Assembly: GCA_050258555.1 (NCBI GenBank) | Contig: JBLMZA010000159.1 | Coordinates: 1,906 to 65,905, forward strand | Origin: Acidobacteriota bacterium | Lineage (GTDB): Bacteria; Bacteroidota; Ignavibacteria; UBA10030; UBA8401 | Length of the DNA stretch: 64,000 nucleotides | Reading direction: 5' to 3' | In this document: piece after piece, positions 27,400 through 50,695 of the stretch | How positions within the stretch are numbered: the first letter of the stretch is position 1 | Layout of the letters: every line of letters begins with the position of its first letter | Notes under the pieces: model-generated | The model's database searches: none | What the model saw: only the letters and a program-made list of their open reading frames with translations | What the model was told of the DNA's origin: nothing | Made by a program: the position numbers and the translations under genes

Positions 27400-27428
27400 T
27401 TGCATTCCAAGGCGATTCTTGTTACTTT
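27400..27428 (+). promoter_or_regulatory. sigma70-type promoter of the TonB-receptor locus
   Basis: TTGCAT-N17-TACTTT with an extended-10 TG. Confidence 0.55.
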
Positions 27429-27496
27429 CCAATGATCATTCAACGCTGACCTTGGTTTATTTTCCATTCTCCATTTTTTTGGAAAGGATATCAATA

Positions 27497-28900
27497 ATGA
27501 AACGTTTGGCTACCCTTGTTCTGATGCTGTGCGCGGCTGCGACTCTTCAGGCGCAGGAAGCATGGAACTACACAAAAGACATCCTTTTTCCGCCCGCCGA
27601 TTCCTCCTGGGCGCGTCCGTATCTGATGACGGTCGATGCCTCGGGCAATCTCTGGGTCATCACGACGAGCTCATCCGATACCTCGACGCATAACGCGGTC
27701 TTCAAAGCCGCTCCCGGCGCGTCGGTCTTCACGAAGGTGTACGACTTCACGGCGAACAACGAGCCTGAATCGAAGATGGGACTCATCGGCCTCACGTCGA
27801 TCGGCACCGATATCGTCATTTCGTCGCGCATCGACAACATGCTCGGCAACTTCTATTACCTGCCGCAGGGCGATGCGGCCAACAAGAAGGTCTTCAAGAG
27901 CGGCGGATACGGCACGCATATGTACGGCATCGCCGCCACGCGCGACTCGTTCATTTACTCCGGCATTTCGGCCTGGGGCGTCTCGATCCGCGTCTTCAAT
28001 TATTCGAAGGGCGATGCCGCATCTTCGGCATACAGCCAGTGGGTGGCCTTCTCGACCACCGACGGATCGACCGCACCGAAGGAGCCGGGCGGACCGACGT
28101 TGGACGGTTCGGCACTGATCCGCGATCTCGCGCTCAATCCGAAGGCGAACTACGACGATCCGAAGCAGTATTTCTTCTCGACCCGCAACTCCGAAAAGGG
28201 CATGACCAATGGCGGCATCGCCGTGTGGAAAGGCGGCACGCAGCGCAAGAGTCCCATCAATCCCGAGAAATACGTCGCAAAGCGCGTGAACGATTTCTTC
28301 GGCGATCTGTCGTGGGGAACGAACGCTCCCTACGGCATCACGAGCGATTCGCTCGGACGCCTCTGGGCATGCGGCACCGATTCGGCCAAGCGCTGGGTCC
28401 GCGTGTATGACGTCGACACCAGTGGCACGACGGCGTTCGCCACGATGAGCTTCGAGCTGCCGAGCAAGAACAGCGCCAATGCCGATGCGAAGGGCGCCAA
28501 CATGCTGGCTCCGGCCGATGTGGCGTTGAACAAGCAGACGGCCTACGTGTCCGATCTTCTCGCCAAGCGCGTCTTCGTGTTCCAGAAGCAGGGATCGACC
28601 GCCGTCACGATGCCGCAGGCGAACATGCCGCGGCAGTACGAACTGGGACAGAATTACCCGAATCCGTTCAACCCGGCCACGGTCATCACCTATGCGCTTC
28701 CGAAGTCCGGCATGGTGTCGCTGCAGGTCTTCAACCTGATCGGTCAGAAAGTCGCGACGCTGGTCGACGGCTATCAGAATGCAGGACGCCACTCGGTGAC
28801 GTTCAATGCTGCATCCCGCAATCTTCCCTCGGGCATGTACTTCTACCGCCTCAGCACGGACGGCATCTCGTTCACCAAAAAGATGCTGTTGAGCAAATAA
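27497..28900 (+). CDS. Secreted protein with T9SS type-A-like C-terminal sorting domain; beta-propeller-like body
   Basis: Signal peptide; C-terminal YELGQNYPNPFNPATVITY...VFNLIGQKV...LPSGMYFYRL...TKKMLLSK. Confidence 0.82.
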   Translation: MKRLATLVLMLCAAATLQAQEAWNYTKDILFPPADSSWARPYLMTVDASGNLWVITTSSSDTSTHNAVFKAAPGASVFTKVYDFTANNEPESKMGLIGLTSIGTDIVISSRIDNMLGNFYYLPQGDAANKKVFKSGGYGTHMYGIAATRDSFIYSGISAWGVSIRVFNYSKGDAASSAYSQWVAFSTTDGSTAPKEPGGPTLDGSALIRDLALNPKANYDDPKQYFFSTRNSEKGMTNGGIAVWKGGTQRKSPINPEKYVAKRVNDFFGDLSWGTNAPYGITSDSLGRLWACGTDSAKRWVRVYDVDTSGTTAFATMSFELPSKNSANADAKGANMLAPADVALNKQTAYVSDLLAKRVFVFQKQGSTAVTMPQANMPRQYELGQNYPNPFNPATVITYALPKSGMVSLQVFNLIGQKVATLVDGYQNAGRHSVTFNAASRNLPSGMYFYRLSTDGISFTKKMLLSK

Positions 28901-28952
28901 CAGTCGCCCTCCGCACGACACTACGGTACGGCTTCAATGGTGTGCATGCGCC

Positions 28953-28982
28953 CGCGCCCTGGACCCCAAGGTCCCGGGCGCG
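28953..28982 (+). other. Intergenic GC-rich hairpin without U-tract
   Basis: CGCGCCCTGGACC-CCAA-GGTCCCGGGCGCG, 12 of 13 pairs. Confidence 0.55.
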
Positions 28983-29030
28983 AGTGCGATGTGTGGCATT
29001 CAGAGCATTTTTATGACAACAGGATGTAGG

Positions 29031-32000
29031 ATGAAACACCACTTTCTCTTGAAACCCCTCATGCGATCCCTCGTCGTGCTACTCTGCGGCGTGTCGCTCG
29101 CGTTTGCCCAGCGCGGCAAAATTTCCGGAACCGTGATCGACGGCGAATCGAAAGAGCCGCTGACCGGCGTCAACATCGTGCTGAAAGGCACGACGCAGGG
29201 CGGAGCGACGGACGTCGACGGAAAATACGCCATTCTCAATGTCACGCCCGGCACCTATACGCTTGTGGCGAGCATGGTGGGATACAACCAGGTGCAGATC
29301 ACGAACGTGCGCGTGAACATCGACCGCACGACGACGATCGACATCACCATGCAGTCATCGGCCGTGCAGCTCGGAGCGGTGGTGATCGAGGCCAAGCAGC
29401 CGCCGGTCACGAAGGACAAGACCGCCACGGCATCGACCGTCGAAGGACGCGATATCGAGAAGGCGCCGGTGGAAGGCCTGCGCGAAGTGATGGAGCTCAA
29501 TGCCGGCATGCAGAAGAATCCGAACGGCACGTTCAGCCTTCGCGGCTCGGGCAGCTACGACATCAACGTGATGGTCAACGGCGTCGAACAGATGACTTCC
29601 AGCACGAGCGTGCCGGGGTTCGGCGCGCTGGGCGACAAGGCGAACAACTCGTGGAAGTACGACTTCAATCCGCTCGGCGTTCAGCAGATGGAAATCATCT
29701 CGGGCGGATTCTCGGCCGAGTACGGCAACGCCCAGGCGGGCGTCGTGAAGGTCGTGACGCGCGAAGGCGGTCCGAAGCTTCAGGGACAGATCCGCTACGA
29801 ATTCCGTCCGCCCGGACAGTATCACTGGGGCGACTACATCTACAACACGAACTCCATCGAGTGGAAGAAGTGGGGAACGATCGAAGGATGGCGGAACAAT
29901 CCCGGCATGGATTCGACATCGATCGTCAACACATATCTGAACGATCCGAAGACCGGCAAGGTCATCGATTCGCTCAACGGCCATCCGATCACGGTCGAAG
30001 AGTGGCGGCAGCTCATGCTGGCGCGCTGGATACAGAATCACACGCCGGGAGAGGATAATCAGCTCGGCGTCTACGATTACCGGAAGAACATGTATCAGCG
30101 CCTGCTCTTCAGCGTCGGCGGTCCCCTGGGCGCCGATGCGAACCTGCTGCGCTTCTTCTTTGCGGGCGAGTACCGCTACGCGCCCACGCGCATCCCGACG
30201 GCGGAGCAGGTGCAGAAGTATCAGAACTATACGCTCACGACGATCTATCAGCCGACCGCCGTGCACAAGATCCGGCTTACGGGCATTTATCAGAGCTACC
30301 GGGGCGGCATTTATTCCGGCTCGGAAGACATCCGCTGGGCCGGATACAACGGCGACTACAAGTATTATCTCGTGACCGATTCGCCGCGCGATGAATACAC
30401 CACGACGCAGAGCCTGAACTGGACGTATACGCTCAGTCCGAAATCGTTCCTCGATGTGATGGCGACGCATCAGTTCGAGAAATACATTCTGCTCGAGCAG
30501 CCCGTGCCGCAGCGCGCGGCCAACTGGCGCAACAACGTGTACAACGACCAGTGGTACATCACCGCCGGTCCGTGGGATGAGGGCTACCGCACGATCTATT
30601 CGTTCACCACATTCAACCAGCAGGACCTTCGGACGCACCAGTACAATCTGACTGCCGACTTCACCAATCAGTTCACGGCCTCGCACGATGTGAAGATGGG
30701 CTTCCGCGCCACCTACTGGGACATGCACAACAGCGCCGTGTATTCGAGCTTCGCCTCGAACGCCTTCATCTCGCGCACGGGCTATGCGGAATACTACAAG
30801 GCCTATCCGCGCTACATCGCCGGCTATGTGCAGGACAAGATGGAATTCGAGGGCCTCGTGGCGAACGTCGGCGTCCGTGTGGACGCCTACAACATGAATT
30901 CGCCGATGCCTGTCGACCGGTTCGACCCGTTCTACATCGCCGTTGGATCCGAAGCGATCGGAAATCCCGAGACCACAACGCCCGAAACATGGGTGCGCGT
31001 GTCGCCTCGTCTCGGACTCTCGTTTCCGATCGGGGAGATGACGGCCTTCCGCCTGCAGTACGGTCACTTCTCGTCGATGCCGATCTTCAGCAATGCCTAT
31101 ACGCGCACGAACGAGCTGGGCTGGGCGGCCTTCGGCAATCCGAACCTCGCGCCAAAGCGCACGATCAATTACGAGATCGGCGTGCAGCATTCGTTCGGAG
31201 GCACGCACCGTCTGGACGTGGTGGCGTATTACAACGACCGCGTGAGCCAGATCGGCGGCATCAAGATTTATTCGCCGAGCGCCGGCATCCGCCGCAACAA
31301 GCTGTATTCGAGCTACGACAACAACCAGTTCGGCGCCTCGCGCGGCATCGAAGCGACGTTCGAGAAAGTGAGCCGGGGACGCTGGACGTACCGCATCACG
31401 TATTCGCTCTCGCGCACGACATACGGCAACTACGGACCGACGAAGCTCTACTCCGACGATCCGAACGATCCGCGCAACTTCCAGGATGCGTTCGCGCCGA
31501 CCGATTATCTTTCGTATGACGACCGCACGCACACGCTGCGCACGATGCTCACATACAACGTGGAAGCGAACGAAGGCATCGAGATCTTCGGCGTGCATCC
31601 GTTCGAGCGTCTCTCGGCCAGCCTCATCTACACGGCGCAGAGCGGCTCTCCCTACACGTACGTGCCGTCGTACGACGAACTCTACAAGGCGTATACGAAC
31701 GACCAGGTCACAAACAACCGCCGCTACCCGCTTGAGGCGAAGACCGATCTCAACATCACGAAGAATCTGAACCTGTTCGGATTCGAAGCGATTCTCGGCG
31801 TGCGCATCATGAATCTGTTCGACAACCAGTGGCTCACGCCGCTTGATTACAAGACGGATCAGATGCGCAACTGGGTCGAGTACGGCATCACGATGGACCG
31901 TCCGATCACGATCAATAATTTCGATGCGAACAAGAATCCGGTCGTGGATTATTCGCAGCAGATCTACAAACTCAATTTCTTCCGCGCATACCGCAACATG

Positions 32001-32039
32001 CCGCGGCAGGTCTTCTTCACGCTGGGATTCAACTTCTAA
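29031..32039 (+). CDS. TonB-dependent receptor with N-terminal carboxypeptidase-like regulatory domain
   Basis: GKISGTVID...GTYTLVASMVGY; plug LRG...GGFSAEYGNAQAGVV; C-terminal PRQVFFTLGFNF. Confidence 0.93.
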   Translation: MKHHFLLKPLMRSLVVLLCGVSLAFAQRGKISGTVIDGESKEPLTGVNIVLKGTTQGGATDVDGKYAILNVTPGTYTLVASMVGYNQVQITNVRVNIDRTTTIDITMQSSAVQLGAVVIEAKQPPVTKDKTATASTVEGRDIEKAPVEGLREVMELNAGMQKNPNGTFSLRGSGSYDINVMVNGVEQMTSSTSVPGFGALGDKANNSWKYDFNPLGVQQMEIISGGFSAEYGNAQAGVVKVVTREGGPKLQGQIRYEFRPPGQYHWGDYIYNTNSIEWKKWGTIEGWRNNPGMDSTSIVNTYLNDPKTGKVIDSLNGHPITVEEWRQLMLARWIQNHTPGEDNQLGVYDYRKNMYQRLLFSVGGPLGADANLLRFFFAGEYRYAPTRIPTAEQVQKYQNYTLTTIYQPTAVHKIRLTGIYQSYRGGIYSGSEDIRWAGYNGDYKYYLVTDSPRDEYTTTQSLNWTYTLSPKSFLDVMATHQFEKYILLEQPVPQRAANWRNNVYNDQWYITAGPWDEGYRTIYSFTTFNQQDLRTHQYNLTADFTNQFTASHDVKMGFRATYWDMHNSAVYSSFASNAFISRTGYAEYYKAYPRYIAGYVQDKMEFEGLVANVGVRVDAYNMNSPMPVDRFDPFYIAVGSEAIGNPETTTPETWVRVSPRLGLSFPIGEMTAFRLQYGHFSSMPIFSNAYTRTNELGWAAFGNPNLAPKRTINYEIGVQHSFGGTHRLDVVAYYNDRVSQIGGIKIYSPSAGIRRNKLYSSYDNNQFGASRGIEATFEKVSRGRWTYRITYSLSRTTYGNYGPTKLYSDDPNDPRNFQDAFAPTDYLSYDDRTHTLRTMLTYNVEANEGIEIFGVHPFERLSASLIYTAQSGSPYTYVPSYDELYKAYTNDQVTNNRRYPLEAKTDLNITKNLNLFGFEAILGVRIMNLFDNQWLTPLDYKTDQMRNWVEYGITMDRPITINNFDANKNPVVDYSQQIYKLNFFRAYRNMPRQVFFTLGFNF

Positions 32040-32052
32040 TATCATCATACAC

Positions 32053-34116
32053 ATGGCGACACGAAACGACAACATGGAACACATGCGGCTTCTGCGCAGG
32101 ATCGCCCTGCGTGCAGCGCTTGCGCTGACGGCGCTGATGGTCTGCGGCGAGATCGCACCGGCACAGGTCGACGGACCGCTCATCAGCCTGCGCCGCGGCA
32201 TGCTCTGGAATTCCTATTATTACGGAAAGGAGGCCGCGCCGTTTTCGAACTGGTCGCGCCTCAACTACGGCCTCGACTGGCCGGGATTCGATCCGGAATG
32301 GATCGGCGCCAATATCGGAGGCGCAAACAGCTACATGACCTCCGGCGGCATGTGGGTGGGCGCGAAGGACGACTCCGGGAAGATCATCGCGATCGAAGAC
32401 TGGGCGATGTATGCCGGAACGGTGACCGTTGAGAACTCGGCGAAGTACAAGGTGAAAAAGCACATGCGCCGATGGAAAAACGGAGAGAACTTCTGGAACC
32501 AGGCCGATCCGGCCGAAGCGCAGGACGTGATCGATACGGAATGGGAAATGAATCCGAGTTATGTGCCGACGTATGTGGGCGACCGGCAGCTTCCGCTGAA
32601 CGTGAAGCGCACCGTGCGCCAGAACGCCGGCTCGAAGGACGACGAGAACTACATCACGACCGAATACGTGCTGCGCAACGTGAGCGACACGCTTGCGATC
32701 AAAGAGATGTACCTGATGATCACGTACGCGCTCGGCGCCAACTCGCGCGGCTGGAACACGCTCTTTGCGAACTTCAACCAGGGACCGCGCAACAACCGCT
32801 TCGTCTACAATCCGAGCGAGAAAAGCATCGTCGGCTACGCCGAGGATTATCCCGAGACGCCGAGCGTGAACGAGAAGTACGATTATTATCCCGTCGGCGG
32901 TCCGACAGGCAAGGGCGAGTTTCTCGCTCCGGGCTATGTCGGCTTCCGGCTGCTTTACAGCTCTCCCGATTCGACCGGCACCGCGACGCGCGTCTCGAAC
33001 TACGCCTGGAGCGCCGTTCCCGATCAGCAGGATCTCTACGGTCCGTTCGGCTCGGCCAGCATGGGAACGGAAGCCCGGTATGAAGTGATCAAGGATCCGA
33101 TGAAGGCCACCGAAGCATTCAAATCGCCGACCGATACGCGCATGACACGCCGCCGCGTCTGGTCGATGATGACGCTCGGACCGTTCCGCCTGAAGAAGGG
33201 CGACTCGGTGCGCGTGGTGGTGGGAGAATACGTGGCCGGCGGTCCCTATGCCGTGGCGGTGAATCCGACTTCGACAGCCGGCGTCATCGGAACGGAGGCG
33301 ACGAAGGCCCTGACGGCCATCGGCAAGCGCATCAAGATCGCCGCCGACAACAAATTCCGGGTTCCTCGTCCGCCTGCATCGCCCGAGTTCACGCTGCAGC
33401 TCGGCGCCGATCCGAAGCAGGTGTCGAATATCCTGAAGTGGAAGACCGATGTCGAAGCGCTTCCCGATCCCGATTATACGGGCAGCGAGCGCTTCGATCT
33501 TGCCGGCTACCGCATCTACCGGTCGGGATATCTTCCGCTCGGACCGTGGATGCTCGTTGCCGAGATTAAAAAGGGAGACGGCCGCTATCTGACCGGAGGT
33601 CAGTACACGTATGTCGATACGTCCGTGGCGATCGGCACGTCGTACTATTATGCGATCACATCGTACGACTCGGCGCATGCCGTCTGGCCGGTGAATCCGG
33701 CGGCGTTTCCCGGAGGCGTGCCGTCCCAGGAATCGTCCATCTACGCATCGCTCTATGCGAAGAGCTCGCTCAATCAGAACCTCGTCGTGTCGCCGTTCAA
33801 GACGACCATCCCCGCGGCGCAGGATTATTCGAACATTCTCGTCGTGCCGAATCCGTTCGTGCTCCAGTCGGGTTCCGTGATGCCGAGCGACAAAAGCTAT
33901 ATCCAGTTCATCAATGTTCCGAGTCCCTGCACGATCCGCATCTATACGATGCGCGGCGATCTGGTCAAGACCATTCCTCACGACGACGGATCCGGCATTG
34001 CGCTGTGGAACCAGCAGACCGATTACGGCCAGTTCGTCGGAAGCGGCGTCTACATCTACCACATCGAGTCGCCGGGCGGCAAAACAAAAACGGGTAAACT
34101 CGCCATCGTGCGCTGA
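32053..34116 (+). CDS. Secreted protein of unknown function with Fn3-like domain and atypical C-terminal sorting-like domain
   Basis: Signal peptide; DLAGYRIYRS...YYYAITSYD Fn3-like segment; C-terminal VVPNPF...CTIRIYTMRGDLVK...GSGVYIYHI...GKLAIVR. Confidence 0.75.
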   Translation: MATRNDNMEHMRLLRRIALRAALALTALMVCGEIAPAQVDGPLISLRRGMLWNSYYYGKEAAPFSNWSRLNYGLDWPGFDPEWIGANIGGANSYMTSGGMWVGAKDDSGKIIAIEDWAMYAGTVTVENSAKYKVKKHMRRWKNGENFWNQADPAEAQDVIDTEWEMNPSYVPTYVGDRQLPLNVKRTVRQNAGSKDDENYITTEYVLRNVSDTLAIKEMYLMITYALGANSRGWNTLFANFNQGPRNNRFVYNPSEKSIVGYAEDYPETPSVNEKYDYYPVGGPTGKGEFLAPGYVGFRLLYSSPDSTGTATRVSNYAWSAVPDQQDLYGPFGSASMGTEARYEVIKDPMKATEAFKSPTDTRMTRRRVWSMMTLGPFRLKKGDSVRVVVGEYVAGGPYAVAVNPTSTAGVIGTEATKALTAIGKRIKIAADNKFRVPRPPASPEFTLQLGADPKQVSNILKWKTDVEALPDPDYTGSERFDLAGYRIYRSGYLPLGPWMLVAEIKKGDGRYLTGGQYTYVDTSVAIGTSYYYAITSYDSAHAVWPVNPAAFPGGVPSQESSIYASLYAKSSLNQNLVVSPFKTTIPAAQDYSNILVVPNPFVLQSGSVMPSDKSYIQFINVPSPCTIRIYTMRGDLVKTIPHDDGSGIALWNQQTDYGQFVGSGVYIYHIESPGGKTKTGKLAIVR

Positions 34117-34137
34117 GAGAGGCAACAATCGACCACT

Positions 34138-35085
34138 ATGAAAACTGAAAAATTCATTCTACTGCTGATCTGCCTGATGTGCTGCGCGAATGCATCATGG
34201 GGACAGAATAATTTCAAGAAGATCGGAACAGCGGGGTATGTGTTCCTGGAAATTCCCGTGACGGCCCGCGGTGCGGCCATGGGCGAAGCCACGCTCACGA
34301 CGCTGCAGGGCGCGCTGAGCGTCTTCGACAACCCCGCGGCAACGGGACTGAACACCGACCGCCATTCATTCGGCGCCTCGTTCGCGGACTGGTTTGCCGA
34401 GACGCAGCACAAGGCCGCCGCGTATTCCTATAACGGCGCCGATCTCGGCGTCTTCACCGTCTCGGCGGTGCAGCTCGACTACGGCACCATGCAGGGCACG
34501 ATCAGCCCGAGCGCCGACGCGACAGGTTCGTACATCATCACCGACGATTTCTCGGCGGACGGTCTTGCGCTCGGCGTGTCGTATGCGCGGCAGATGACGG
34601 ACAAATTTTCGTTCGGCGCGACGGTCAAGTATGTGCGCGAGAAGATTTCGGTTTACAAGTCGGACAACATGCTTTTCGATGCCGGCATCTACTACAGCAC
34701 AGGATATCATTCGCTCCGCATCGGCGGCGCGCTGAAAAATTTCGGCGTCGATGCGAAGTATCTGCAGGGCCTCTTCAAAATGCCGACGGAATTCCGGCTC
34801 GGGGCGTCGATGGATGCATTCGGCAGCGAGGCGAGCGATCATCGCCTGACCCTGGCGGTCGAAGCCACGCATCCGAGCGACAACGACGAACGGTTCAACG
34901 TCGGCGGCGAATACTGGTTCCAGAATTTCGTCGCCCTCAGGGGCGGATACAAATTCAATTACGACGAAGAGAAATGGACCGCCGGCGCCGGAGTCCGGTG
35001 GTCGGGACTCACGCTCGATGCGGCCTACGCCTCCTATGGACGGCTCGGCACGGTCGTCCGGTTTTCGCTCTCGGCGGGCATCTGA
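34138..35085 (+). CDS. PorV/PorQ family outer-membrane protein
   Basis: GTAGYVFLEIPVTARGAAMGEA, SVFDNPAA, YARQMTDKFSFG, ALRGGY, ends FSLSAGI. Confidence 0.88.
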   Translation: MKTEKFILLLICLMCCANASWGQNNFKKIGTAGYVFLEIPVTARGAAMGEATLTTLQGALSVFDNPAATGLNTDRHSFGASFADWFAETQHKAAAYSYNGADLGVFTVSAVQLDYGTMQGTISPSADATGSYIITDDFSADGLALGVSYARQMTDKFSFGATVKYVREKISVYKSDNMLFDAGIYYSTGYHSLRIGGALKNFGVDAKYLQGLFKMPTEFRLGASMDAFGSEASDHRLTLAVEATHPSDNDERFNVGGEYWFQNFVALRGGYKFNYDEEKWTAGAGVRWSGLTLDAAYASYGRLGTVVRFSLSAGI

Positions 35086-35117
35086 TGCCAATCACTCAAC
35101 TGATATCACTCTTACGT

Positions 35118-35978
35118 ATGAAAACTCGCGTTTTGATCTTGACACTCCTGTGCGCTGCAGCCGTGACGGCGGCATCGGCACAGGAACAGCAGAAAATGTT
35201 TTCACTGAAGACGCTCACGGCAACCGGACAGGCGCTGTTTGGCGTCAGTCCCCGCTCGACGTTCCAATCGGGCAGCACGGGCATCGGCGGGGGAGCCGAA
35301 GCTCGTCTCCATCTGACAGGACCGATATCGCTCAGCCTTGAAGGCGGCTATCAGGACTATACGATCAAGCAGAAGAGTCCGGTCACCAACTGGAACTGGG
35401 TTTACTGGCAGAAATATTACCGCAGCTACATCAACACCGACTGGCTGGGTTCCTATTCCTATTTCAACGGCACGCGCGTGAGGACTTCGACGCTCACCGA
35501 CGACCAGATCGTTTCGGGCACGCCGATCGTCCGCGAAGACAGCATCTATCAGGCCACGTTCAAGGCCGTGCAGACGATGAGCGTCATTCCGCTCGGCATC
35601 TCGGTCAATGCCGAAATTCCGGTCAACGCATGGCTCGTCCCGTTTGTGGGAGCCGGCGCGAGCGTCTATCTGTACGAGCGCACCATGTATCTTGACGAGC
35701 ACTGGACAAAGCGCGCCAGGCCCGATGCCGGCATCGACAGCGGCCGCGTCTACCCGTTTGAATATGATTTCCGGAATTTTGCGACGCCGATCAGGGGAGA
35801 GGTCTATGCCGTCTCGGCAAAAGCAGGAGCCGATCTGCTCGTCTCGCGTCTGATCGGGTTCCGTTTCACGGCGCAGTATCAGGGCATCATCGATGCCGCA
35901 GGCGGCGCCTCTGCCGCCAGGAATTTCCCGTTCCGCGGCACCTTTGCCGCCACACTGGGACTCGTCATACGCTACTGA
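35118..35978 (+). CDS. Outer-membrane beta-barrel protein with a long inserted loop (start may be 35085)
   Basis: Signal peptide, amphipathic strands (VPFVGAGASVY), C-terminal GLVIRY. Confidence 0.7.
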   Translation: MKTRVLILTLLCAAAVTAASAQEQQKMFSLKTLTATGQALFGVSPRSTFQSGSTGIGGGAEARLHLTGPISLSLEGGYQDYTIKQKSPVTNWNWVYWQKYYRSYINTDWLGSYSYFNGTRVRTSTLTDDQIVSGTPIVREDSIYQATFKAVQTMSVIPLGISVNAEIPVNAWLVPFVGAGASVYLYERTMYLDEHWTKRARPDAGIDSGRVYPFEYDFRNFATPIRGEVYAVSAKAGADLLVSRLIGFRFTAQYQGIIDAAGGASAARNFPFRGTFAATLGLVIRY

Positions 35979-36049
35979 GAGTTGTTATTCTGCGGGGCCA
36001 AGCGCGCAGCTTCGCCCTCGACACTGTGCACACATAAATTCTGATTGCC

Positions 36050-36682
36050 ATGAATAAACGATTGTTCATCATCCTTTTCCTGCTTTGTTCCTTCACCTCC
36101 GCGCATGCGCAGACCGCAGGCAGTTATTACGTCGCGGCGCGCGGCATGTATTCCGCGCCCATCGGTTCGCTTGGCGACTGGTTCAAGCCCGCCACAGGCG
36201 TGCAGATCGCCTTCGGCACGCGCAGCGAATCGGATCTCACATGGGAATTCAACGCCGAAATGATGACCTATTCGAAGCCGAATACGGGCAAATTGTATTA
36301 TCCCGATCTCGATCTGAAGCTCGAGCTGTTCGGCCTTGGCGCCCAGGTCGATTACGCGATCACCACTCAGTCCATGGTGACGCCCTACGTCACGGCAGGC
36401 GCGGCGTTCTACCGATGGCTGGGCACGCGCGGTCGGCATGCGCTCGACTCGGCGCAGACGCAGATCGTATGGGAATTGAAGCAGAACGACTGGAGCGCGG
36501 GATTCAATGCCGGTATCGGCGTCAATGTCGCCGTCACATCGGCGCTCTCAATCGACGCATCGGCACGCTATCACATCGTCAACGGCGAACTCTGGCCGGC
36601 GCTTGCTCTTCGGCTCGAGAATGTCAGCGGATTCCAGTCGCTTCGGACCTCCGTCGGCCTCAAATACGAATTCGAATTCTGA
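36050..36682 (+). CDS. Outer-membrane beta-barrel protein (OmpA-TM-like)
   Basis: Signal peptide, TPYVTAGAAFY, GFNAGIGV, C-terminal GLKYEFEF. Confidence 0.75.
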   Translation: MNKRLFIILFLLCSFTSAHAQTAGSYYVAARGMYSAPIGSLGDWFKPATGVQIAFGTRSESDLTWEFNAEMMTYSKPNTGKLYYPDLDLKLELFGLGAQVDYAITTQSMVTPYVTAGAAFYRWLGTRGRHALDSAQTQIVWELKQNDWSAGFNAGIGVNVAVTSALSIDASARYHIVNGELWPALALRLENVSGFQSLRTSVGLKYEFEF

Positions 36683-36743
36683 TCCGGCATCCGGACCTCG
36701 GCGCAGCAAGAGGCGCCGTCGGGCTCAGTTGGAGAAGATGCAT

Positions 36744-36780
36744 AACGGCTTCCTGAAAGAGAAGAAGGGAAGCCGTTTTT
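36744..36780 (+). terminator. Intrinsic terminator closing the TonB-receptor locus
   Basis: AACGGCTTCC-N14-GGAAGCCGTT-TTT. Confidence 0.7.
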
Positions 36781-36869
36781 CATGTACATTTTTTCTCTAT
36801 GAAGTCTCGCCCGTATTTCGTATTTTTTAAAAAGATTATCAAACATCATAGAACGGACTTTGATCATTC

Positions 36870-38015
36870 ATGCTCACACCCATCGTAGAACCGGAGCAAA
36901 GTGCCATTCTGATTGTCGATGACGAAGACGCCAATGCGGGTGCCATCAGCGCCATTTTGTGTCATGAAGGATTCAAAACCTTTTCAGCCGGCACCGGCAT
37001 GGAGGCGCTTGCGATCCTTGCCGGCGAACAGGTGGATCTGGTGCTGCTCGATATCGTACTGCCGGATATCGACGGATTCGAGGTGCTGGCGCGCCTGAGA
37101 GCGGTTCCGCGGACGAAAGAAACTGCGGTCATCTTCCTGAGCGGAAACATGCGCGATCCTGCATCGATCGAGAAGGGATTCAGTCTCGGCGTCAACGAGT
37201 ATCTGGTGAAACCCATCGAGCCGGCGGAACTTCTGGTCCGTGTCCGGTCACTGCTGCGCCTGCGGTACGCCGAAAAGCGATGGCGCCAGCTCAACGCCGA
37301 TTTCATATCGATGCTTGTGCACGATCTGAGAGGTCCGCTGACCGCCGTGCATGCCTTCACGCGGCTGATGAACGAGGATGCCGAACTGACCGAGGCCGCG
37401 CGCAGCGAAATGCTCCGTCTGATGGACAGTTCATGCAACCACATGCTGGACATCATCAACGACATTCTGGACCTGTCGAAGCTTGAAGCGGATTACGTGC
37501 GGCTCAACACCACCGACATCGATCTGCGGAAAATCGTAAACGAGACCATCGGCCGCATGAAGCCGCTCGCGCTGAAAAAGTCGATACATGTTTCCACCGA
37601 ATACATCGATGCGGCGCGCCTTGTGAAAGCCGATCCGAAGAAACTCGAGCAGGTGATGGAGAACCTGATCGGCAACGCCATAAAATTCACCGCAAGCGAA
37701 GGAAGCATCGCCATTACCGTCCGGTTTGCGGCCGGCCCGGAGGATCTGCCCGATACGCCCGTGACGTTTTTCCCGTCGATGGTGGTTTCTGTCGCCGACA
37801 CCGGAGCGGGCATACCGGACGAGGACCAGCATCTGCTCTTCGACAAGTACCGGCAGGTGAAGACGGACAAATTGCGGACGGAAAAGGGAACCGGCCTCGG
37901 ACTGGCAATCTGCAAAAAGATCATCGAAGCTCATGACGGCCAGATCTGGCTCAGAAGCAAAGTCGATGTGGGAACCACCATCTTCTTTGCGCTGCCGATC
38001 GGCGACGGTCAATAG
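36870..38015 (+). CDS. Hybrid response regulator-histidine kinase (REC-HisKA-HATPase)
   Basis: LIVDD, LLDIVLPDIDG, YLVKP; H-box LVHDLRGPL; N-box LIGNAIKF; DTGAGI; GTGLGLAIC. Confidence 0.92.
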   Translation: MLTPIVEPEQSAILIVDDEDANAGAISAILCHEGFKTFSAGTGMEALAILAGEQVDLVLLDIVLPDIDGFEVLARLRAVPRTKETAVIFLSGNMRDPASIEKGFSLGVNEYLVKPIEPAELLVRVRSLLRLRYAEKRWRQLNADFISMLVHDLRGPLTAVHAFTRLMNEDAELTEAARSEMLRLMDSSCNHMLDIINDILDLSKLEADYVRLNTTDIDLRKIVNETIGRMKPLALKKSIHVSTEYIDAARLVKADPKKLEQVMENLIGNAIKFTASEGSIAITVRFAAGPEDLPDTPVTFFPSMVVSVADTGAGIPDEDQHLLFDKYRQVKTDKLRTEKGTGLGLAICKKIIEAHDGQIWLRSKVDVGTTIFFALPIGDGQ

Positions 38016-46032: not shown

Positions 46033-48060
46033 ATGACCCGGATGATCCTGCTTTGTACCGCTTTCCTGCTTTTGCAATCCACCCTTCCTGCCGAATGGAA
46101 ACAGATCGACGGTCCGTATGGCGGACCTGTCAACGCAATGACGATGGTCGGCAGCGTCATTCTTGCGGGAACGAATGGGGCGGGAGTTTTCCGGTCTACA
46201 GATCTGGGCGCCTCATGGTCGCAAACCGACCTGAATAACGTTTCCGTACTTTCTTTGACCAGGCAGAGCGATCGTGTCTTGGCCGGTACGGACAAAGGAA
46301 TATTTGTATCGGGCGACGGCGGGATCCATTGGTCACCGATTACTCCTGAAGGTTCGCCGATGTATGCCGCGGCCATCGCGTGCGTCGGGACCCATCTTTA
46401 TGCCGGCCTATTCGGAGGAATGCTTCGCTCATCCGACGATGGCGCCACATGGAATCCGGTCGATGGCGTGCCGTCCTCGGTGTGGATCAACGCTATCACG
46501 TCACTGGGCGGGACGATCTTCGTCGGCACGAATGGAAGCGGCGTGTACCGGTCGACGGACAGCGGGAAGACGTGGACCAGCGTGCGGACCGGCCTGACAA
46601 ACCTCACGGTCGGTGCGATCGCCGCGGCTGGAAACACGATCCTTGCCGGAACGGGCCACGGCGTATTCCGTTCGACGGATAACGGGACGACATGGAAACC
46701 GACAGAGTTTCCGAATGAAGAAGTCCGCGCCGTGGCATTTTCCGGGACAAAAGTCTATGCGGCTTCTTCACGAAGCGTCTATCAATCTGCAGACGACGGC
46801 GCGACATGGCTGTCGATGAACTTCCCGAGTCAGTATAACCCCCACATCCAGGCGATCGCCGTCTACGGATCGAAAATCTTTACCGGCACGAACGTGGGAG
46901 TGATCATGACGTCCACCGGCGGCATCAGCTGGACGCAAGCCAACACCGGTCTGAACAATCTTCCCATCGGCAGTCTTGCCGTCGCCGGATCGGTTACCTA
47001 TGCCGGTTCCGATTATCAATCCTATTCCTCATCCGATCAGCGGAAGCACTGGGTTCCGATGGGGCTCACCGGGTCTGTCAGAGGATTCGTACCGATCGGT
47101 GATACGCTCTTTGCCGGGATATCGGGAGGCGGAGTGATGCGTCACCCGGACATCTGGATGTTCTGGGAACAGGCCATCAATGGCATGACCAACATCGATG
47201 TGTCGTGTCTTCTGTCGCATCGCGGCAGGCTGATTGCCGGCACAGCCGGAGGCATTTTCATTTCTTCCGATAAGGGAGCATCGTGGACAGCCTCCAATTC
47301 GGGACTTGCCAATGTCATGGTGAATGCCGTCGTCGTCAACGATACGGAGATGTATGCGGGAACCAATGGCGGCGTCTATCGATCGTCCGATGGCGGAACG
47401 ACGTGGGGCTCGGCAGGCACCGGCGTTGCCGGCCGGAAGATCAACTCGCTTGCGATTGCCGGACGCGATGTGTACGCCGGAACAGAGCATGGCGTCTATC
47501 ATTCGGCAGACCGGGGGAGCAGCTGGGAGCAGTCCGGAAACTCGGTGCTGACGATGCCGGTGCTCTGTCTTGTTGAAAGCGGATCGCTGATCTTTGCCGG
47601 AACACTGCGGAAGGGCGTCTATATGTCCGCCGACCACGGAACGACCTGGACGTCATGCGGAATGGCTGACATGACCATCAACTGCATGGCGTTCGACGGC
47701 AGCGATCTTCTTGCCGGCACACAAGGAAGAGGCGTGTGGTCCCGCTCTCTGTCTGAGATGGTCACGCATGCGGACGCTGTGGCCGCATCCGTACCCGATC
47801 GAATGCTGCTGTATCAGAATTATCCGAATCCATTCAATCCTCAGACGACCATCGCTTTTACCCTCGCCGATCGTACGCAGGTCTTGCTGCATATCGTGAA
47901 TGCGCTCGGCGAGGAAATCGCCACACTTGAGTCGGGAGATTTGTCGCGTGGGACCTACACGCGTGTATGGAATGCCGCCGGATTACCGAGCGGCGTGTAT
48001 TTCTGCCGTCTGCGTGCGGGCACTGCTTCGGTCACGCGAAAGCTGATGTTTCTTCAATGA
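46033..48060 (+). CDS. Secreted BNR/Asp-box beta-propeller protein with T9SS-type C-terminal domain
   Basis: Signal peptide; repeated AGTxxGVYRSxDxGxTW; C-terminal QNYPNPFNPQT...LPSGVYFCRL. Confidence 0.85.
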   Translation: MTRMILLCTAFLLLQSTLPAEWKQIDGPYGGPVNAMTMVGSVILAGTNGAGVFRSTDLGASWSQTDLNNVSVLSLTRQSDRVLAGTDKGIFVSGDGGIHWSPITPEGSPMYAAAIACVGTHLYAGLFGGMLRSSDDGATWNPVDGVPSSVWINAITSLGGTIFVGTNGSGVYRSTDSGKTWTSVRTGLTNLTVGAIAAAGNTILAGTGHGVFRSTDNGTTWKPTEFPNEEVRAVAFSGTKVYAASSRSVYQSADDGATWLSMNFPSQYNPHIQAIAVYGSKIFTGTNVGVIMTSTGGISWTQANTGLNNLPIGSLAVAGSVTYAGSDYQSYSSSDQRKHWVPMGLTGSVRGFVPIGDTLFAGISGGGVMRHPDIWMFWEQAINGMTNIDVSCLLSHRGRLIAGTAGGIFISSDKGASWTASNSGLANVMVNAVVVNDTEMYAGTNGGVYRSSDGGTTWGSAGTGVAGRKINSLAIAGRDVYAGTEHGVYHSADRGSSWEQSGNSVLTMPVLCLVESGSLIFAGTLRKGVYMSADHGTTWTSCGMADMTINCMAFDGSDLLAGTQGRGVWSRSLSEMVTHADAVAASVPDRMLLYQNYPNPFNPQTTIAFTLADRTQVLLHIVNALGEEIATLESGDLSRGTYTRVWNAAGLPSGVYFCRLRAGTASVTRKLMFLQ

Positions 48061-48154: not shown

Positions 48155-50695
48155 ATGACTTCGCGTGTCAGAACCATCCTTCTGGCGGCATGCCTCTGTG
48201 TTTCAACCGCCGCTCGCTCGTTCCAGCAATTCGATCCTGCCGTCTACCGGCAGTTTCTCACCACGCATCAGAACATGACGCCGGAACAGCTGCTCCGGTT
48301 CCGGCCGGCAGGCGCATTTTTGAAGACCGCGCCGACGCCATTCAGCACCGCGCTCTATTCCGATTCCATACAGGCAAAATATCCGCTCACGGCGTACGAA
48401 CGCTCGCTCATCGAAAGGAACGGGTTCGTGGTCACGGAGCGCATCGCTCCGCAGTCGTTCGGCGCCGCATTCGACGAGATCTGGCACAAGGATCTGCCCG
48501 TGTTCATCTCGACCGACGCCATTCTCCATGCGATACACATGTCGTACGATGCGATGCTGAAGAGCACCGAAGAACAGATTCTGATCGAACGGCTCGATAC
48601 GCTCCTGACACGTGTGCATCGGCGGCTTCCAACGCTCGCTTCGGCGTATGCCGGCACAAGCGGCATGACGCAGCCGCTGAGGGACGTCGATCTCTATTGC
48701 ACGATTCCGCTTCGGCTGCTGCGAGGAAACGCCGTGGCGACAGCCTTTCCGGAAACCAGCCCGGCCGCGGATGCGCTCATGAAGCTGATCGCTTCGGAAC
48801 AGCCGCACTCCTATGCGCTCTTTTCTTCCGTTCCCAGGACGATCGATTTCAGCCAGTTCAAGGTCAGGGGGCATTACACGCAGTCGCCGGCGCTAGGCCG
48901 CTACTTCCAATCGATGATCTGGCTCGGTCGGACGGAACTGTATCTCATCGCACCGGTCAACTCGATTCCGCCGCAGACGAATGCCGACATACAGCGTCAG
49001 GCAGTCGATGCCGTGCTTGTTTCAGAAGCGGTGAAGGGCGCATCGGCCGACAGCGTGCTTGAAGAGATCGACGGCATGATCCGCTTCTTCGCCGGAGAGT
49101 CGGACAACGTGACGCTTCGGAATCTGCGCACGCTCATCGATGCGGTGCATCTGTCGAATGCCGCCGACCTGCTCGACTCCGCGCGATGGGCGGCGTTTCA
49201 GGAGACGCTCAAGAAGCAGTCCTTCGCCGATCAGCGGATCCTCTCTCAGATCATCATTTCCGATCCGTCGGATCCCGATCAGATTCGTCCGGCCTCGGCG
49301 TTCCTTCTTCTGGGGCAGCGGTTCGTCATCGACTCGTATGTAACCGGCAGCGTGGTCTTCGACAAGATCCTCTTCGAGAACAGGAAGATTTGGCGGCCGC
49401 TTCCGTCGAATCTCGATGTGCTCTTCACGCTGGGCAACGACGCCGCGGCGCAGCTGCTGGGTCCGGAGCTTTCGAAATATCATTATGCGACGAACCTCGC
49501 GTCGCTCCGGTATCTCGTCGATGCGTATGAACAGGAATTCTGGGAAAGCACGCTCTACAACAACTGGCTTCATTCGATCCGCGCGCTGAGTCCGCCGGCC
49601 GACCGGAGCATGCTGCCGGCCTTCATGCGCACGGCGGCCTGGTGGCAGGAGAAGATGAATACCCAGCTCGCCTCATGGGCGCAGCTCAGGCATGACAATC
49701 TGCTCTATGCGAAGCAGTCGTACACGGGCGGAACGATCTGCTCGTTTCCCGAAGGGTATGTCGAACCCATTCCGGAATTCTATGCGCGCATCAGACAGTT
49801 CGCTTCCATCGCGGCTTCCCGTTTTAAAACCGGGTTCGCTGCGCGGCTCGGCTTCGACTCGTACTGGGAACATGTGAGGGATGTCGCCGACACGCTCGGC
49901 TCGATTGCGCAGAAGGAACTATCGAAGACGCCGCTCACCGACGACGAGAAAGGCTTTCTCCGCCGCATGCTCTTCGTGTATCAGATCTGCGGCGGAGGAT
50001 ATTCCGGGTGGTATTACCGCATGTTCTATACGGGAGCGGAAGGTTTCCGCAGGGACGACCGCATCGTGGCCGACATCCACACATGTCCCACCGATGAAGC
50101 AGGCAACATGGTGGGATGGGTGATGCATGCGGGAACGGGTCCGGTGAACATGGCCGTCGTCACAACGGAACTGCCGGACAATCGGCTCGTCTCGTTCATC
50201 GGTCCCGTGATGAGTTACTATGAGCATGTCAGCGTGAACTTCAAGCGCCTCAGCGATGAAGAGTGGAAGACCGCCTATGCGATGGCTCCGACATTCAGGC
50301 CCGACTTCGTCAATCTGTATCTGGCCGATCAGGAAGGGAAAGCGCGCGCGCAGGGGCCATCGCTTCTGACCGGCGTGGACGATCCGGGCGGGGAGGTGCT
50401 CGTGCCGGCTTCGATCGTCCTCGGCAGAAATTATCCCAATCCGTTCAACGGCACGACGATCATCACATTCACGATTCCGGACCGGTTCACGTCTGCCTAC
50501 ATCGATCTCTCCGTGTACGATGTGCAGGGAAGGAAGGTCAGGACGCTCGTGAACCGGACGATGCCTTCCGGCAAATTTGCCGTGAGCTGGGACGGCTCGA
50601 ACGAACACGGCATGCCGGTTTCAAGCGGCATATATTTCTACCATCTCTCGACGGGGGGCACGCGCCTGATCGGAAAGATGACCCTTGTCAGATAG
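48155..50695 (+). CDS. DUF3160 domain protein with T9SS/FlgD-Ig C-terminal domain
   Basis: PVFISTDAILHAIH, DFSQFKVRGHYT, YFQSMIWLGR, LASWAQLRHDNLLYAKQS, GYVEP, VADIHT, GPVMSYYE; NYPNPFN C-terminus. Confidence 0.85.
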   Translation: MTSRVRTILLAACLCVSTAARSFQQFDPAVYRQFLTTHQNMTPEQLLRFRPAGAFLKTAPTPFSTALYSDSIQAKYPLTAYERSLIERNGFVVTERIAPQSFGAAFDEIWHKDLPVFISTDAILHAIHMSYDAMLKSTEEQILIERLDTLLTRVHRRLPTLASAYAGTSGMTQPLRDVDLYCTIPLRLLRGNAVATAFPETSPAADALMKLIASEQPHSYALFSSVPRTIDFSQFKVRGHYTQSPALGRYFQSMIWLGRTELYLIAPVNSIPPQTNADIQRQAVDAVLVSEAVKGASADSVLEEIDGMIRFFAGESDNVTLRNLRTLIDAVHLSNAADLLDSARWAAFQETLKKQSFADQRILSQIIISDPSDPDQIRPASAFLLLGQRFVIDSYVTGSVVFDKILFENRKIWRPLPSNLDVLFTLGNDAAAQLLGPELSKYHYATNLASLRYLVDAYEQEFWESTLYNNWLHSIRALSPPADRSMLPAFMRTAAWWQEKMNTQLASWAQLRHDNLLYAKQSYTGGTICSFPEGYVEPIPEFYARIRQFASIAASRFKTGFAARLGFDSYWEHVRDVADTLGSIAQKELSKTPLTDDEKGFLRRMLFVYQICGGGYSGWYYRMFYTGAEGFRRDDRIVADIHTCPTDEAGNMVGWVMHAGTGPVNMAVVTTELPDNRLVSFIGPVMSYYEHVSVNFKRLSDEEWKTAYAMAPTFRPDFVNLYLADQEGKARAQGPSLLTGVDDPGGEVLVPASIVLGRNYPNPFNGTTIITFTIPDRFTSAYIDLSVYDVQGRKVRTLVNRTMPSGKFAVSWDGSNEHGMPVSSGIYFYHLSTGGTRLIGKMTLVR

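Follow-up and report, generated by a model that had tools for sequence, protein, structure and literature searches.

Glycan uptake by TonB-dependent transporters is known almost entirely from the SusC/SusD systems of Bacteroidia, in which surface lipoproteins capture the substrate. SusE/SusF and SGBP-B are multidomain beta-sandwich surface proteins that associate with the TonB-dependent transporter. The sister phyla, for the most part uncultured, abound in sediments, soils, hot springs and the ocean. In Ignavibacteriota and neighbouring phyla a secretion system of type IX (T9SS) is only suspected (PMC11285876). PorZ is a T9SS protein that retains its tail and is bound by PorQ, and a review has proposed that cognate PorV-like barrels shield such tails from cleavage (PMC10202324). 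Here we analysed a 64,000-nt stretch of contig JBLMZA010000159.1 (assembly GCA_050258555.1; positions 1,906 to 65,905), assigned to Ignavibacteria and hereafter called the window. Its forward strand carries six same-strand genes with short spacers, A to F (27497-36682), and every product appears to be exported, as judged from signal peptides read by eye. We propose, with our confidence evenly balanced, that B-C-D-E-F represents a single instance of a conserved module for uptake at the outer membrane, with A as a frequent companion, in which the T9SS-delivered protein C, carried on barrel D, would serve the TonB-dependent receptor B. The six genes are as follows.

27497-28900, + strand: A, a 467-aa T9SS cargo with a propeller-like N-domain and a C-terminal sorting domain of type A (PF18962 34.5 bits, cut-off 27; TIGR04183 42.9 bits, cut-off 23).
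29031-32039, + strand: B, a TonB-dependent receptor of 1002 aa whose N-terminus carries a CarboxypepD_reg-like extension (PF13715, CarbopepD_reg_2, 83.2 bits; PF07715, Plug, 44.0 bits; PF14905, OMP_b-brl_3, 47.2 bits).
32053-34116, + strand: C, a 687-aa secreted all-beta protein (680 aa from the alternative start at 32074), without a Pfam match and characterised by its AF2 model.
34138-35085, + strand: D, a 315-aa 14-strand FadL-like barrel of the PorV/PorQ family (NF033709 198.3 bits, cut-off 90), the proposed anchor for C.
35118-35978, + strand: E, a 286-aa small outer-membrane barrel of an uncharacterised family (weak PF13505, OMP_b-brl, match).
36050-36682, + strand: F, a 210-aa small outer-membrane barrel (PF13505, OMP_b-brl, 43.7 bits).

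All six open reading frames (ORFs) have signal-peptide-like N-termini (6/6), in agreement with the initial annotation, which had described six exported genes on one strand. By inspection, these signals are of the signal peptidase I (SPase I) type, with cleavage between A/G and Q in 6/6 and a clear lipobox in none. In the arrangement that we propose, B would be a TonB-powered import channel. C would cross the inner membrane by Sec and leave the periplasm through the T9SS via its C-terminal Ig-like domain; its tail would not be removed and would dock on the cognate PorV/PorQ-type barrel D, as PorZ does on PorQ, fixing C on the surface beside B. The N-terminal domain of C would then capture a polymeric substrate, most likely a glycan, and hand it over to B. 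E and F would be accessory barrels, and A a propeller protein secreted on its own, acting as a binder or as an enzyme not yet recognised. Most relatives encode T9SS-secreted GHL10 glycosidases beside the module, and some also an inner-membrane transporter and amino-sugar genes (NanE, ROK).

We surveyed relatives at one genome per species, using tblastn of the window proteins and all-against-all ORF clustering; 161 relatives were returned and 80 loci were kept. By record title these loci came from Ignavibacteria (43), Kryptonia (5), Marinimicrobia (5), Calditrichota (3), Delongbacteria (1) and WOR-3 (1), the rest being vaguely labelled. The order B-C-D-E-F on one strand was near-universal. When we counted only loci whose contig extends far enough to show the gene (hereafter loci with room), the tallies were 67/67 for B, 72/73 for D, 56/65 for E and 53/60 for F, bearing out the conserved receptor-cargo-barrel order that the initial annotation had presupposed. 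Block order and strand were kept across several phylum-level lineages at 34-60% identity, and A lay upstream of B in ~38 of the 80 loci. Some genomes carried two modules, either within one metagenome-assembled genome (MAG) (L010 and L042) or on a single contig (L038 and L075).

We then compared the receptor and its neighbour with SusC/SusD (RagA/RagB). Like that pair, the locus has a ~1000-aa TonB-dependent barrel with a CarboxypepD_reg-type extension directly before a proposed surface partner. B has the plug and large beta-barrel of a generic TonB-dependent receptor (PF07715 44.0 bits against a cut-off of 23.9; PF14905 47.2 against 27), and LGAVVIEA, just ahead of the plug, resembles known TonB boxes as judged by eye. 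Unlike SusC, however, B scored only 76.6 bits on the SusC/RagA model TIGR04056 (cut-off 368.25), matching model positions 2-216 of 981 at its N-terminus, and its sole sequence match in the PDB was the N-terminal extension of a SusC homologue. Judged by these profiles, B is not a true SusC. The second half of the pair differs as well: in place of an adjacent helical, TPR-like SusD/RagB lipoprotein we found no SusD match and a predicted all-beta protein with an SPase I-like signal and a putative T9SS-type tail, followed by a PorV-family barrel (72/73), with no hydrolase in the window. None of the six products matched a SusD, glycoside hydrolase, peptidase or regulator (0/6; Pfam/TIGRFAM-type profiles, E ≤ 0.01), just as the initial annotation had read the unit.

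The AF2 model of C alone (pLDDT 82.9, pTM 0.81) predicted a beta-super-sandwich (residues ~38-435), a long helix (409-432), an FN3 domain (~445-545) and an Ig-like, PorZ-like C-terminal domain (~595-687; window 33835-34113). We recovered 54 close full-length homologues (39-63% identity), all annotated as 'hypothetical' and mostly from Ignavibacteria MAGs; across 30 family members no Pfam match was found (30/30), bar two weak FlgD_ig matches. The N-domain is rich in conserved aromatic residues. By Foldseek, the model of C matched PorZ/PorU tail regions and FN3 domains, and its N-domain weakly matched sandwiches that lie, without a catalytic role, at the N-termini of GH94 phosphorylases, of a GH15 dextran dextrinase and of GH116 (TMq ~0.27, rmsd ~11 Å). 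Since C is predicted to be all-beta and its N-domain has weak Foldseek matches only, it is neither a SusD fold nor a recognisable enzyme, which upholds that part of the earlier description. The initial annotation had gone further and cast a PorV-tethered secreted protein as a substrate-capture "lid" replacing SusD. Our results do not support this term, because C is a beta-sandwich protein that is not SusD-like, and the models covered C by itself and C joined to D. Judged by its model, C would have more in common with surface glycan binders of the SusE/F type than with SusD, a helical cap.

The proposed pairing of C with D recalls PorZ-PorQ (and PorU-PorV) of Porphyromonas gingivalis, in which a tail is kept on a PorV-family barrel (PMC10202324). 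The tail of C matched that of PorZ best, both by profile and against PDB 5m11 by sequence and Foldseek, and D scored higher on PorQ than on PorV. D falls within the PorV/PorQ family on NF033709, and its model is a 14-strand FadL-like barrel with an N-terminal hatch-like segment. The best Foldseek matches of D were two F. johnsoniae PorV entries with TMt 0.66-0.70, 8gl6_F (E 1e-14) and 6h3i_F (TMt 0.70), followed by FadL, TodX and CymD. However, both proteins failed the equivalog cut-offs. C reached 24.7 bits on the PorZ model NF052228 (cut-off 260), over the last ~93 model positions only, and D reached 118.8 against 220 for PorQ (NF033711), 80.9 against 250 for PorV (NF033710) and 40.5 against 325 for PorV2. 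On these scores D is a family paralog, neither PorV nor PorQ proper, so that the earlier statement that the locus has "its own PorV" holds for a PorV-family barrel structurally closest to PorV and fails for PorV or PorQ in the strict sense. SprB/SprF of Flavobacterium, in which a type B C-terminal domain goes with a PorP/SprF-like barrel, likewise sets a special T9SS cargo beside its own cognate PorV-like barrel (PMC10202324). The tail of C has more in common with type A/PorZ than with type B, however, and C has no CHU_C match; D belongs to the PorV/PorQ family rather than PorP/SprF, and the proposed function of C and D is tied to import rather than to gliding adhesins.

Several features of the genes themselves suggest that C and D act as a pair. 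The stop codon of C overlaps the start of D by 4 nt in 21/71 loci, and most other gaps are shorter than 40 nt (21 nt in the window). In one Ignavibacterium-labelled MAG (L021 5039-6102), a stop-rich insert of 1062 nt splits C from D, perhaps a mobile element or else a fault of the assembly; all other gaps are below 240 nt. The tail is the most conserved domain of C: its mean pairwise identity is 61.5%, whereas the N-domain reaches 43% and FN3 49%. By contrast, A, which carries a T9SS type A sorting domain at its extreme C-terminus by both TIGR04183 and PF18962, has a tail no better conserved than its body (48% and 45% mean pairwise identity). This excess conservation, present in C and absent from A, fits a tail that stays bound to a structural partner better than a signal that is discarded after use. 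Because C and D share a reading frame, we could model a read-through fusion, translated through the TGA of C, from an alignment of 14 in-frame fusions from other loci together with 50 C-only and 50 D-only rows. The fusion model (pLDDT 90.2, pTM 0.76) was disordered only in the linker and the D signal peptide. Two well-folded, mutually unplaced bodies of these sizes would be expected to give a pTM of ~0.64 by our own estimate, and the higher value is thus a hint of a defined arrangement of the two. Together, tail conservation, stop/start overlaps and the PorZ-like tail match lend indirect support to the pairing.

We next consider the wider superfamily of C. Its profile, searched against 1.84 billion representative proteins, returned 354 at E ≤ 1e-30, a number that rises to 3995 at E ≤ 1e-10 and to 10791 at E ≤ 1e-3. 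Many distant relatives are 650-1260 aa long and align only from approximately profile position 366 onward (helix, FN3 and tail), while their N-terminal domains differ. In spot checks of distant members, a same-strand gene occupied the receptor position directly upstream of the partner in 4/5. One locus (L088 4054-16383) encodes a LacI regulator, a receptor, a 1025-aa partner, a PorV-like barrel, an NPCBM protein and a GH98. Another (L087 2983-9733) encodes a sigma-54 two-component system, a receptor, a PorV-like barrel and a 910-aa partner, the order of barrel and partner being swapped. Two more have a large unannotated gene upstream of the partner, presumably the receptor (958 aa in L084 and 851 aa in L086), on contigs that end before the barrel position; the fifth (L085) is a short, uninformative contig. 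Given these spot checks and the alignment span, the partner proteins appear to combine a docking half that stays the same with N-terminal domains that can be exchanged, within a receptor-partner-barrel trio that is accompanied by varying enzymes. By analogy, this trio appears to behave as SusC/SusD does within polysaccharide utilisation loci (PULs): in both, the pair of receptor and partner, here B and C, is the invariant core beside variable secreted glycosidases (GHL10; GH98 and NPCBM in L088).

This constancy bears on whether C on D is only an accessory surface binder in the manner of SusE/F and SGBP-B, concentrating polymer while B works without a cap or direct partner. C is all-beta and multidomain with an FN3 domain, like SusE/F and unlike the helical SusD, and we obtained no evidence of contact between C and B. 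SusE/SusF and SGBP-B are, however, lipid-anchored, variable and dispensable, whereas C is invariant beside B and probably barrel-anchored. C has B as its immediate neighbour in 67/67 loci with room, in contrast to the variable accessory binders of Bacteroidota loci, and the receptor-partner-barrel trio persists, core-like, in distant loci with different enzymes. We therefore regard a purely accessory role for C as unlikely, while granting it some plausibility.

Clustering of the flanking ORFs in the surveyed relatives returned the following recurrent neighbours.

49 loci: GHL10 glycosidases (99 copies), which often carry Golvesin_C and a T9SS tail.
20 loci: a 495-aa polytopic membrane protein.
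15 loci: a Hydantoinase_A-type protein.
9 loci: a PF12831 FAD oxidoreductase, full-length ORF cluster.
9 loci: a PF12831 FAD oxidoreductase, short ORF cluster.
8 loci: NanE.
6 loci: ROK.
5 loci: DUF5009.

GHL10 lay beside the block in 43/55 loci with room, while none of these recurrent neighbours, GHL10 included, occurs anywhere in the 64-kb window. The description of the locus as "hydrolase-less" is thus accurate for this copy and does not carry over to its relatives. Likewise, a PUL in the broad sense, with CAZymes beside a transporter, is absent from the window, whereas the relatives have GHL10. The window copy is a minority, stripped form that consists of the outer-membrane part alone, and the L066, L068 and L078 loci are similar. 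The only PDB relative of a representative GHL10 protein was Cwp19, and E. coli DigH is in the same Pfam family. Cwp19 is a peptidoglycan-cleaving enzyme of Clostridioides difficile (PMC5765458, PMC6016235), DigH acts on denuded peptidoglycan strands (PMC12288456), and another characterised GHL10 member acts on starch (PMC9967864). From these relatives, a peptidoglycan glycan or amino-sugar polymer is a reasonable, unproven substrate class for the typical locus. In four loci (including L001, L002 and L018; e.g. L018 9185-11962), F is followed by a 925-aa conserved protein without a Pfam match (cluster c20), which precedes the FAD oxidoreductase and the membrane protein.

The six genes could also encode co-transcribed outer-membrane proteins without a common machine, their adjacency reflecting shared regulation or the inheritance of an envelope gene block. 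The C-D interface is only hinted at by the model, no role can be assigned to E and F, and the window block sits among housekeeping genes (nuo, yifB, rsmB, uvrA, dnaG), all of which would fit such an account. Against it, order and strand are maintained across several phylum-level lineages at 34-60% identity, C and D overlap translationally, and the block travels with varying hydrolases. We consider mere co-inheritance improbable.

It is very improbable that C and D are the general T9SS attachment pair of this lineage, its PorZ and PorQ, serving all cargo and linked to the receptor only incidentally. That C matches the PorZ tail best and D matches PorQ best is what this explanation would call for. 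However, the PorZ score of 24.7 against 260 comes from the tail only, and that for PorQ is 119 against 220. The body of C is a super-sandwich with FN3 where PorZ has two propellers. The C-D pair also differs from PorZ-PorQ in that it appears to share an operon with a TonB receptor and can be duplicated (L010/L042, L038/L075), and it belongs to a very diverse superfamily whose thousands of variants with different N-domains are unlike a housekeeping part. Finally, we give little credence to the idea that D is a channel of the FadL type and that the module imports some hydrophobic or amphipathic compound through it, with C as an extracellular carrier: FadL, TodX and CymD are the next structural neighbours of D after PorV and its model has the hatch-like N-terminal segment, but D lies far above the PorV/PorQ family cut-off, and the neighbouring genes in relatives are for glycosidases and sugars rather than for the breakdown of lipids or aromatics.

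We also examined the boundaries and expression of the unit, in which two hairpins stand out.

28944-28992, + strand: a GC-rich, very stable hairpin in the A-B spacer without a U tract (dG -35.6 kcal/mol, z -6.4; 0/200 shuffles fold as well).
36744-36786, + strand: a terminator-like hairpin with an 11-bp stem and a 12-nt loop, followed by UUUUU (dG -19.5, z -2.7).

The second hairpin and its U5 tract fit the end that the initial annotation gave to the unit, which it took to close at a terminator. A consensus promoter/terminator scan missed this hairpin because its loop is long, and the same scan returned no convincing promoter for the A-F unit. The first hairpin may be a processing or stabilising element, or a partial stop, and from its position between A and B the expression of A may differ from that of B-F. 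In two environmental metatranscriptome sets (sediment and soil), contigs carried pieces of all six genes at ≥ 99% identity, with the greatest depth over A and lower depth over B-F. These pieces offer low-depth support for the expression of A-F and do not prove a single transcript. The genes around the unit are unrelated housekeeping genes: nuoG/H/I and a YifB-type ATPase lie upstream, a REC-HisKA-HATPase gene, a cytoplasmic Asparaginase_2 and RsmB lie downstream, and uvrA and dnaG are also in the surroundings.

Returning to our preferred reading, in which C is held on D in the service of B, a number of results weigh against it. The tail of C is barely recognised as a T9SS signal (TIGR04183 23.7 bits against a cut-off of 23, a marginal score; PF18962 in 0/30 family members). 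The Foldseek matches of the N-domain are weak and therefore do not demonstrate glycan binding. The pTM of 0.76 for the C-D fusion is suggestive only, since an interface cannot be inspected from pTM and pLDDT. In this window no hydrolase, inner-membrane transporter or catabolic gene lies near the module, and the metatranscriptome pieces are of low depth and could include DNA.

With these points in view, the best-supported reading, by analogy, is that the module may borrow the anchoring principle of PorZ-PorQ without being PorZ or PorQ, and perform a SusC/SusD-like task without membership of those families. We found no published account in the literature of a TonB receptor with a PorV-family-anchored partner. 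More tentatively, and with more doubt than belief, we suggest that non-Bacteroidia FCB lineages (Ignavibacteria, Kryptonia, Calditrichota, Marinimicrobia and neighbours) may possess a general counterpart of the SusC/SusD utilisome that evolved independently. Its surface partner would not be a lipoprotein; it would be exported by the T9SS, with a retained tail plugged into a dedicated PorV-family barrel, and would combine a constant helix-FN3-tail docking part with interchangeable N-terminal substrate-binding domains. If this is true, PUL predictors keyed on SusD miss polymer-degrading loci of the sister phyla, PorV-family barrels serve not only secretion but also, in a second role, as permanent anchors at the surface, and the 'hypothetical' superfamily proteins of 650-1300 aa (~4000 representatives at E ≤ 1e-10) acquire a testable function. 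The window copy would be useful here as a minimal form, the outer-membrane part alone.

The companion protein A carried Por_Secre_tail in 34/34 orthologues and weak SGL propeller matches in 9/34, and its profile gave weak WD40/NHL repeat matches only against the PDB. Because these matches are weak, the "propeller-like" label is plausible and not proven; A, whose SGL/NHL matches are weak, may also be an enzyme in its own right. E is a distant paralogue of F (hhalign 93.5%, E 2e-7) and neither had a PDB relative by sequence; the E/F family lacks a Pfam home of its own. In Kryptonia-type loci (L004-L009 and L067), A-B-C-D are kept and E and F are replaced by three other conserved ORFs (clusters c17, c28 and c29).

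The REC-HisKA-HATPase gene (36870-38015) starts 187 nt after F, beyond the terminator, and encodes a protein with its receiver domain first and without a membrane or sensor domain. We rejected it as a regulator of the locus, since it is not conserved beside the module, lies past the terminator and was covered by no metatranscriptome piece in the two sets. A functional tie between Asparaginase_2 and the module was also rejected, the protein having no signal peptide and the link occurring in 1/80 loci. That one locus, from a Bacteroidetes-labelled MAG (L066 14502-15404), has Asparaginase_2 directly after F at 75% identity to the window's copy, while its B-F genes are only 24-46% identical to those of the window; the outer-membrane genes seem to diverge much faster than Asparaginase_2. 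With A, the window encodes three T9SS-tail proteins, which lends indirect support to a T9SS in this genome. The other two are adjacent and without a link to the module, one being a Sortilin/BNR (Asp-box) propeller protein and the other a DUF3160 protein (532 bits) with an FlgD_ig-like tail, encoded at 46033-48060 and 48155-50695.

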